Part shown: one piece after another, positions 1,674-4,600 of the stretch
Layout of the letters: each line of letters starts with the position of its first letter
Position numbering within the stretch: position 1 is the stretch's first letter
From: Harriotta raleighana
Taxonomy: Eukaryota
Reading direction: 5' to 3'
Length of the DNA: 64,000 nt
Assembly (NCBI GenBank): GCA_050575255.1
Contig: JBNZDD010013683.1
Span: forward strand, 2,244,940 to 2,308,939
The notes under the pieces: generated by a model
Databases searched by the model: none
What the model saw: only the letters and a program-made list of their open reading frames with translations
What the model was told of the DNA's origin: nothing
Program-made: the position numbers and the translations under genes

Positions 1674-4600
1674 CTGCAATTAAGACTTGTGTTTTATATG
1701 CATTCATTCACTTCAAACAAAAAACACTCTCAGGCTCAACGTCTGCACAATAAGCCGCCATCAGAATGCTGCAATTGGAACTTGCAAAAATAATTCCAAG
1801 CATTCTTTTAACTGCTTTTACAGGACTTTTATTAGCTTGGCACCATTATGAGATGACAAATCTGTCTCTATATATCCTGCGCTGATCACTTTCTAACATT
1901 CTATCTATCAGACTTAAAGAGTAGGAGTTAAGCAGGAAAAATAACCATCATATAGCAACCTTTCACATGAAAGAAACAACTTGAAGCATTTAAAGAATGA
2001 GATTCCTATGAAGTGAGCGTTTTGAAGGCACACAGAACAGCTCATGTGTGGCAGCAAAATTACCTCTTCAGGCTCCTGCAGTTCTCCATTATATTACAGA
2101 ATCCAAATCAATTGAAGCAGTCATTCTTTTATAATTAGAATAAACGCTGCTAAATGTTAGTCACCAAAGCGTCAATTTCTTAGTATGTCACATAAAGTAA
2201 TTCTCAAACAAGCATTTTGCATCAGAAAGAAAATGTGAGACACATTGAAGTGCGTTGTCATCAACAGTAATCAACAGGTCAGCCAAGCTCTGCCTCTTTG
2301 GCCAGTTCCTTATCTCCTGGCATTGGGACATTCAGGAAGTCAGTAAACTTGGGCAGTTTCTTGTGGCTTATAACTGAGTACCATAGACTAAGGCCCAAGA
2401 ACATCTCATTGAAGCTACTGCAGGATGAAGCGAAGAGGAAAACATTTTTAAAATGCAAAATAAAATTAAAATTAAAAATAAATAAATAGGACTGTGTTTG
2501 GATGCACTTTTTTTTTAGTTTAGTTTATAATGCAGCACTCGCTGTTCTAACGCAATAGAAAACATTACATAATGCTTATTGTCTCTGCCAATAATAGTGT
2601 TATATGCTTATAAGCGAAATCGTATGAGTTCAGAGCTATTTCTGATTGTGTTCAACGAGACTTTTTGTCAGCTGCTTTCACCGCTTATGGAAAAACTTGC
2701 ATCATGTCATTGTGTTCTGGATACCGTGGGGTTATGTCTGAAGTTCACATCTGTTTGCTGTACACTGGATAGATTTTAAAATAATTATTTACACTGCATC
2801 TGCATCACATGTTCTGCCATCCACGGAAAGCCACAGAGATACAAAAGTTTAATTACTTCTCAAAAGGGCTGCTTTTGTGTCCTGCAGGCATTTGGCTGAA
2901 ATCTGCCATAGCAGAATTATTTTTATAACTATATTTCTGCATTCACTGATCTAAGGAGAACACTAAGATTTGAACAGTTTTGCTAATTTGTTGTAAAACA
3001 TATGACATTTGCGTGAACTGTGATAATGTGTAAGATGGGTTTTGAATCACTGCAATAGAATGGGATCAGCACCCACTGTTTGAAGGCGACATTTAAATTG
3101 TAAAGGCTTCAATGTTAGCTGGATTGAGCAGCCTTTATAATAATAACATTTATATATTTATTATATTTGATACAACGAATGAAATCGCTCATTAGATTCT
3201 TTACATTCCAAATACACTCCGCAATTTTATTCACATTTCTCTCCAAACCTTGACTAAAATAATTCAACCAATATTTAAAATAATGAGTTATGCAATATAC
3301 ATTTTGATTGTAAAAGGTGCAGATTTTGACAGTCCTTTTGAGTTATGCACTTTTGTTTGTATGTCCATACGTTGCACAAATGCACACCACCATATGCATA
3401 TAATGTATATAAATTGCTGATAATTGGGGCTGATGCAGTGCAAGCATATCTACTAATCCACTAGTGCATTTTTTACAGCAAATTGCCACAATTTCAACAG
3501 TGATTCAAGGCCAAACGTGCAGTATAAATGTCATCTGAGATAGTGTTCACCTTCACAGAGCTGCTGTTCAGACTTGAAGGAGAATGATTTCAGGAGCTAG
3601 GGTGGTGGGTGGGGTGGGGGGGGGGGCGGTAAAAAAAATTGTACTTAACTCACTTTAACAATCTTAAAAGCTTGTGTAGAACACCAGAATCACGGGTTTG
3701 TGCTTTTGCCCCTGTCAGTTTCAAATCTGCTAAAGAAAATCTTACTGTTGGGACATTCAATCTTTTCTTAATACACCTGCTCCCTAATAATAATAGTGTT
3801 GAATCTCACAATTCCGTTACCTAAAAGTAGTTTGCTAAATTAGCTTGGGAAAGAACTTTAAAACGGAACAATGTCTAGGGAGGGAGAGAGAGAGAGAGAG
3901 AGAGATCCTCTCAGCAGAAGCTAATAACTTAACATTTTCCAAGCAGGTTGTAAATCTGGAACCAGTCACGGGTATTTTTCTTGGGACACTTCTGAAATGG
4001 CAGAGGCAAGCTGTTAAATACACGGGGAGGAATGGAGCACTTACCGTTCCACCATATGGCTTTGGTCTAGTGACAGCCCATCAATTGCTGTGCACTCCGG
4101 GCACTTGAACTTTTTACGCGGGGTCACCTGCGTGTCACAATAATTCCACAATATTAATGGCATGTTTAATCCAGCGAGATGTTCAAGCACGCCTGCAGTG
4201 TAATCCGAGAGCACCGTCCTTTCAATGCTGTGCTCGCGTTCCGTCTGGCTCACTCAGGCATACTTCAACTCACAAGAGATCAATAAAAATCACTAGAAAG
4301 GTTTTGCGTTCGTTGAAAAACGTGCGATGACAACCCATTAAAATCCATTTAATGACGGTTTTCACACGTCGCGGCGCCTCGTACAAGCAGTGATTGCCTG
4401 TACAATCAGAAGGCGGTGAAATGTTGCTTCCTCTGCTTTGATATGGCCTTATTAGCCCATGTGTATTTTCTCATTAAGTTGATTGACAGTTTCAGTAAAT
4501 ATTTAGAGACTGCGAAAGTGACAACGTTTACAGTGCCCAAGTGGGCTTCTGTAAACCCTACTGAACTACAATCCTTTTAATACAGATTTTATGAAGCAGG

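Follow-up and report, generated by a model that had tools for sequence, protein, structure and literature searches.

Does the last intron of EXT2 in Harriotta raleighana hold an alternative last exon that would give the protein a different C-terminus? The window, by which we mean the whole 64,000-nt stretch of DNA analysed, carries EXT2 on its minus strand as 13 coding exons running from 46943 to 1535 and encoding 718 residues. The translation is identical to Callorhinchus milii exostosin-2 at 708 of 718 residues, which identifies the gene as holocephalan EXT2, and 656 to 675 of its residues are identical to those of four shark and skate proteins. The normal last exon is highly conserved, with 44 of its 45 residues identical to human EXT2 and a Pfam match to the end of the GT64 domain. 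The acceptor of this exon has an AG-free zone of 12 nt; the real acceptors of exons 13 (4127) and 14 (1673) on the minus strand, with 9/20 pyrimidines each, share with exon 11 the lowest pyrimidine count of the gene. The features on which the question turns are as follows.

4045..4127, minus strand: EXT2 exon 13, 83 nt, ending in phase 2 at the donor ACG/GTAAGT
2418..2493, minus strand: T-rich, AG-free tract of 74 nt followed by the candidate acceptor CAG, 17/20 pyrimidines
2415..2416, minus strand: second AG of the CAG-TAG tandem, leaving the frame unchanged and scoring lower than the first AG
2279..2417, minus strand: coding part of the candidate exon, 1 nt plus 45 codons plus TGA
2058..2066, minus strand: donor-like GAG/GTAATT, the top-scoring GT site of intron 13
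1828..1833, minus strand: AATAAA hexamer, 445 nt past the candidate stop
1535..1673, minus strand: coding part of the true exon 14, 139 nt, encoding the end of the GT64 domain, acceptor with 9/20 pyrimidines

The layout proposed in the earlier note was recovered in full. An acceptor AG lies at 2419-2418 on the minus strand with a tandem TAG behind it (second AG at 2416-2415), and the frame that it opens from phase 2 runs for 45 codons (2416-2282) to a TGA at 2281-2279. The distance from acceptor to stop is 139 nt, as is the coding part of exon 14 (1673-1535), and an AATAAA is present at 1833-1828, before the exon-14 acceptor. The donor GAG/GTAATT, suggested as the end of a possible cassette, has its final exon base at 2064 and its GT at 2063-2062. 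The candidate thus combines a 3′ splice site within the intron, matching the phase of exon 13, with a stop inside the putative exon and a poly(A) signal downstream of it; its coding part has a GC content of 47% and a GC3 of 58%.

How much these signals say depends on how often they arise in intronic DNA. The acceptor had been called strong, a description that holds for its 17 of 20 pyrimidines, a count reached by 13 of the 2506 intronic EXT2 AGs and by 1 of the 12 real acceptors, and for its 74 AG-free nucleotides, but not for its fit to a matrix trained on the gene's own 12 real acceptors. Under that matrix the candidate is only average (2.33 against a real-acceptor median of 2.53, with 112 of the 2506 intronic AGs reaching 2.33), because its tract is C-rich and those of the real acceptors are T-rich. 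Open frames of at least 45 codons in the matching phase follow 8.4% of the same 2506 AGs, and an AATAAA lies within 450 nt of 34% of random intron positions. Combinations of acceptor, frame and AATAAA in the 43 kb of EXT2 introns number five at 14 or more pyrimidines, three at 16 or more and two at 17 or more, the candidate counted each time; flanking control DNA predicts 2.7 to 3.0 per 43 kb at the lowest of these thresholds and 0.3 to 0.4 at the highest. The acceptor, the frame and the AATAAA are common signals, not rare ones. A length of exactly 45 codons follows 0.4% of AGs, a match that was spotted post hoc.

The composition of the frame is less ordinary. Coding models were given the 13 exons of EXT2 plus 23 myosin segments (1476 myosin codons) of the same genome as training data, against a background of separate flanking DNA; the training set is small, at about 2,200 codons, and thresholds were chosen after the candidate had been seen, with the null frames held out. 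Under Markov models of orders 0 to 3, the score of the candidate was reached by 0 to 3 of the 179 EXT2 intron frames held out as nulls and by 4 to 20 of 806 neighbouring frames, and it equalled or exceeded those of 9 to 11 of the 13 real EXT2 exons; a frame-specific Markov score had a similar outcome to the plain one. With a codon model, none of the 179 intron frames did as well, against 10 of 1750 control frames and 6 of 2000 base shuffles free of stops. Both components of that model contribute, the amino-acid make-up (reached by 2/179) and the synonymous codon choice (6/179), and training on myosin alone still left just 0/179 and 19/1750 at the level of the candidate. Six-frame scores of stop-containing frames, which the model inflates, were left out. 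GC climbs across the frame and falls past its end, and the candidate ranks third by coding score among 159 sites that combine an acceptor with a frame. The frame is therefore coding-like in composition, standing above about 99% of control frames. When the coding score is added to all of the signals, the chance expectation is 0.02 to 0.09 per gene with EXT2-sized introns, so that a genome scan will return many such sites; for the last intron alone it is 0.001 to 0.005, figures based on 1 to 4 control events in 615 kb. We infer that the full set of signals is unusual locally and that a whole-genome scan would still yield tens of such sets by chance.

The equal length and phase of the candidate and exon 14 call to mind tandemly duplicated, mutually exclusive last exons, a known class. 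The candidate differs from members of that class in lacking likeness to exon 14 in DNA or protein: 36 of 139 nucleotides and 2 of 45 residues match, scores equalled by 249 and 637 of 1000 shuffles, respectively, and a Pfam search found no GT64 profile match in the candidate peptide. We reject a tandem duplicate of exon 14 on these grounds and, because there is no similarity between the two, the identity of their 139-nt lengths looks like coincidence.

Searches for relatives of the peptide were negative. No homolog was present among 40 candidates or among 1.84 billion cluster representatives, the peptide matched 0 Pfam families, and the ESM Atlas held no usable match. Of 337 proteins fetched, a set that includes 15 of 37 shark-cluster members and one chimaera protein (C. 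milii, of which another isoform, X1, lies outside the set), 284 extend through exon 13, and in 263 of these the sequence beyond it is canonical. Among cluster representatives, the candidate tail occurs in 0 of these 284, and all 18 proteins from cartilaginous fishes (sharks, rays and C. milii) that extend this far run into the normal exon 14. The remaining 21 comprise two that end at the junction, one that uses a site within exon 14, one low-complexity gene model and 17 in which exon 13 is followed by one of 12 lineage-restricted tails, unrelated to one another and none like the candidate. Such isoforms are on record from seals, deer, dog, cats, monkeys, chicken, wall lizard, frogs and salmonids, with an identical breakpoint and a replaced GT64 end; their tails, which are annotation-pipeline products, are unlike the candidate, with best local scores of 14 to 24, although one 13-residue frog tail gave a score of 20 that was reached by 1 of 300 shuffles. 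No database isoform in this set bears the candidate tail. In a metagenome-contig EXT2 locus of bony-vertebrate type, the 4 kb before exon 14, a span that stops short of exon 13, held no match to the candidate. An EXT2 alternative last exon was likewise not found in the literature searched, most subscription journals lying outside its scope; in the excerpted text of a human alternative-polyadenylation study (PMC11739498), EXT2 appears only through an associated intronic variant, and the excerpts of PMC9178029 and PMC7905910 hold nothing decisive for the candidate.

Within the genome, a DNA search showed one copy of the candidate region, and a protein search returned the site itself and one match at E=1.7. 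Neither blastn at E<0.09 nor nhmmer matched the candidate in a 555-kb genome sample, and a profile built from the commonest repeat tail nearby, the one in the EXT2 3′ UTR, missed it; a faint six-frame match to that tail at about 2190-2250 (E 0.085) found no support in the profile search. The interspersed-repeat match expected of an exonised transposon was thus not found, in a test that old or low-copy repeats could escape. Rfam gave two weak matches over positions 1-6000, both far under thresholds and outside the candidate, and the 72- and 42-residue plus-strand frames over the region belong to no Pfam family, the 72-residue frame being single copy.

Several other features of the locus deserve record. 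Reading through the exon-13 donor on the minus strand meets an immediate TAA (4044-4042) and, 0.8 to 0.9 kb on, AATAAA hexamers at 3231 and 3162, which together provide a second route, on paper, to a truncated EXT2. Also on the minus strand, the 12 nt (2075-2064) between an AG at 2077-2076 and the donor at 2064 would add four in-frame residues; the tract upstream of this AG is pyrimidine-poor, and 0 of the 263 canonical EXT2 proteins have an insert there. Beyond the true stop, the only nearby hexamer is an ATTAAA 330 nt away (1205, minus strand), the next ATTAAA or AATAAA being 4.4 to 4.6 kb distant, so that the EXT2 3′ UTR should be either short or very long. At positions 1311-1453 of the window, this UTR holds the conserved terminal part of an interspersed repeat of high copy number, with 138 copies in 555 kb, presumably a SINE or LINE tail, and a 52-nt imperfect inverted repeat lies downstream of the stop at 665-716. 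Database entries show mammalian ACCS either fused to EXT2 or clustered with it, and a mammalian ACCS protein had no tblastn match in the window or in 100 kb on either side; peptides of another gene are present in the right-hand flank.

In the predicted splice product, the codon split by the junction would still encode Arg673, and residues 674-718 would be swapped, among them Cys676, which we take to form a disulfide with Cys626. The human structure, in the excerpted text of PMC9675754, assigns residues 455-702 to the GT-A domain, proposes Arg673 as a binder of the GlcNAc donor in human EXT2 and shows the C-termini of EXT1 and EXT2 paired as an antiparallel sheet. With residues 674-718 swapped and a GT-A domain that runs to 702 in that text, the proposal that the isoform would have its GT64 end replaced is sound, and the candidate tail would likely bring loss of fold or activity.

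The reading that we favor, with a probability of about 0.62, is that the candidate is a cryptic or pseudo last exon, spliced rarely or never and encoding a peptide on which selection probably does not act; this weight, like those behind our wording for the competing readings, is a judgement and was not computed. The exon-13 donor would sometimes choose the pyrimidine-rich candidate acceptor over the pyrimidine-poor acceptor of exon 14, and the resulting transcript would either stop at the AATAAA or, after splicing onward at the 2064 donor, be degraded. A protein made without residues 674-718, which contribute to the GT-A fold and supply the C-terminal strand pairing with EXT1, would probably be unstable or inactive. 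Thousands of cryptic last exons have been described in normal RNA of zebrafish, mouse and human; according to the excerpted text of Bostock et al. (bioRxiv 10.64898/2026.01.30.702498), they are poorly conserved, with a few of them functional, recur in orthologous genes without sequence conservation at a median inclusion of 0.01 to 0.05, and are intron-like, rich in transposons and prone to shorten the protein. The candidate shares with them an unannotated intronic acceptor, a frame that ends within the exon, a downstream poly(A) signal, the lack of a conserved peptide and the recurrence in an orthologous intron of unrelated sequence; by our comparison, the 12 unrelated tails that follow exon 13 in other lineages match the same description. 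It differs from the exons in that text, which are defined by junction reads, in being known here from sequence alone, and whereas those are intron-like, transposon-rich and shortening, the candidate is coding-like, repeat-free and length-keeping. EXT2 is absent from the main text of that study as excerpted. Against a cryptic exon counts the coding-like character of the frame under every model tried.

That character is what an alternative last exon selected as protein would explain. Such an exon would be restricted to holocephalans and would yield an EXT2 of 718 residues in which Arg673 is kept, 674-718 are swapped and GlcNAc transfer or EXT1 pairing is altered. The coding-like codon and amino-acid make-up, the contrast between a pyrimidine-rich acceptor with its 74-nt AG-free zone and the poor acceptor of exon 14, the low chance expectation for the last intron, and a single-copy sequence with no recognisable repeat are all consistent with this possibility. 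We nevertheless consider it unlikely, given that none of the 284 EXT2 proteins extending through exon 13 has the tail, the 18 from cartilaginous fish (one of them from C. milii) among them, that the peptide is without a homolog, and that the coding model was built from so few codons with thresholds set in hindsight. Moreover, the swap would remove part of the domain modelled at 455-702 (PMC9675754, as excerpted), and the 45 final residues are almost invariant between human and chimaera.

The composition of the frame would instead have a historical source if the candidate were a decayed fragment of unrelated coding sequence, such as an old transposon or retrocopy, now lying behind a T-rich tract. 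Most of the control frames that outscore the candidate resemble repeat-derived frames or real exons, their peptides being judged by eye, and the upstream T-rich tract is like an antisense A-rich tail. The single genomic copy, a protein search that adds to the site itself nothing beyond the E=1.7 match, and the blank results of blastn, nhmmer and the repeat-tail profile make such an origin very improbable. A different use of the same acceptor would be a poison exon, a class in which nonsense-mediated decay follows from an acceptor, an in-frame stop and a donor lying over 50 nt beyond that stop. The candidate would share this arrangement: the 2064 donor would close a 354-nt cassette (2417-2064) opened by a strong acceptor, and the stop would lie 215 nt before the last junction, predicting decay that could tune EXT2 dose. 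This donor is the best GT site of intron 13, with a score of 8.5 within the range of the real donors (−0.9 to 11.8, leave-one-out). However, 17 intronic EXT2 donors score as high (0.39 per kb), among 99 equally strong control acceptors 13 have a donor of that score within 400 nt, no paper in the literature searched links EXT2 with a poison exon and nonsense-mediated decay, and a cassette leaves the coding-like frame unexplained; we regard it as quite doubtful.

If the candidate is cryptic, which is the more likely case, it is one further member of a common class and of little consequence. Were the exon real and under selection, EXT2 would have a natural isoform without its GlcNAc-transfer site, one of two such sites in the EXT1-EXT2 polymerase. 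Because mutating the EXT2 GlcNAc-transfer site in human cells lowers heparan sulfate only partly, according to the excerpted text of PMC9675754, such an isoform could tune heparan sulfate output and not switch it off. It is a rather unlikely prospect that chimaeras have a selected second last exon of EXT2, whose product, of the same length and with the end of its GlcNAc-transferase domain replaced, might still bind EXT1 through intact N-terminal domains while losing its own GlcNAc transfer, and would thus constitute a splice switch for heparan sulfate in a lineage with a cartilage skeleton.
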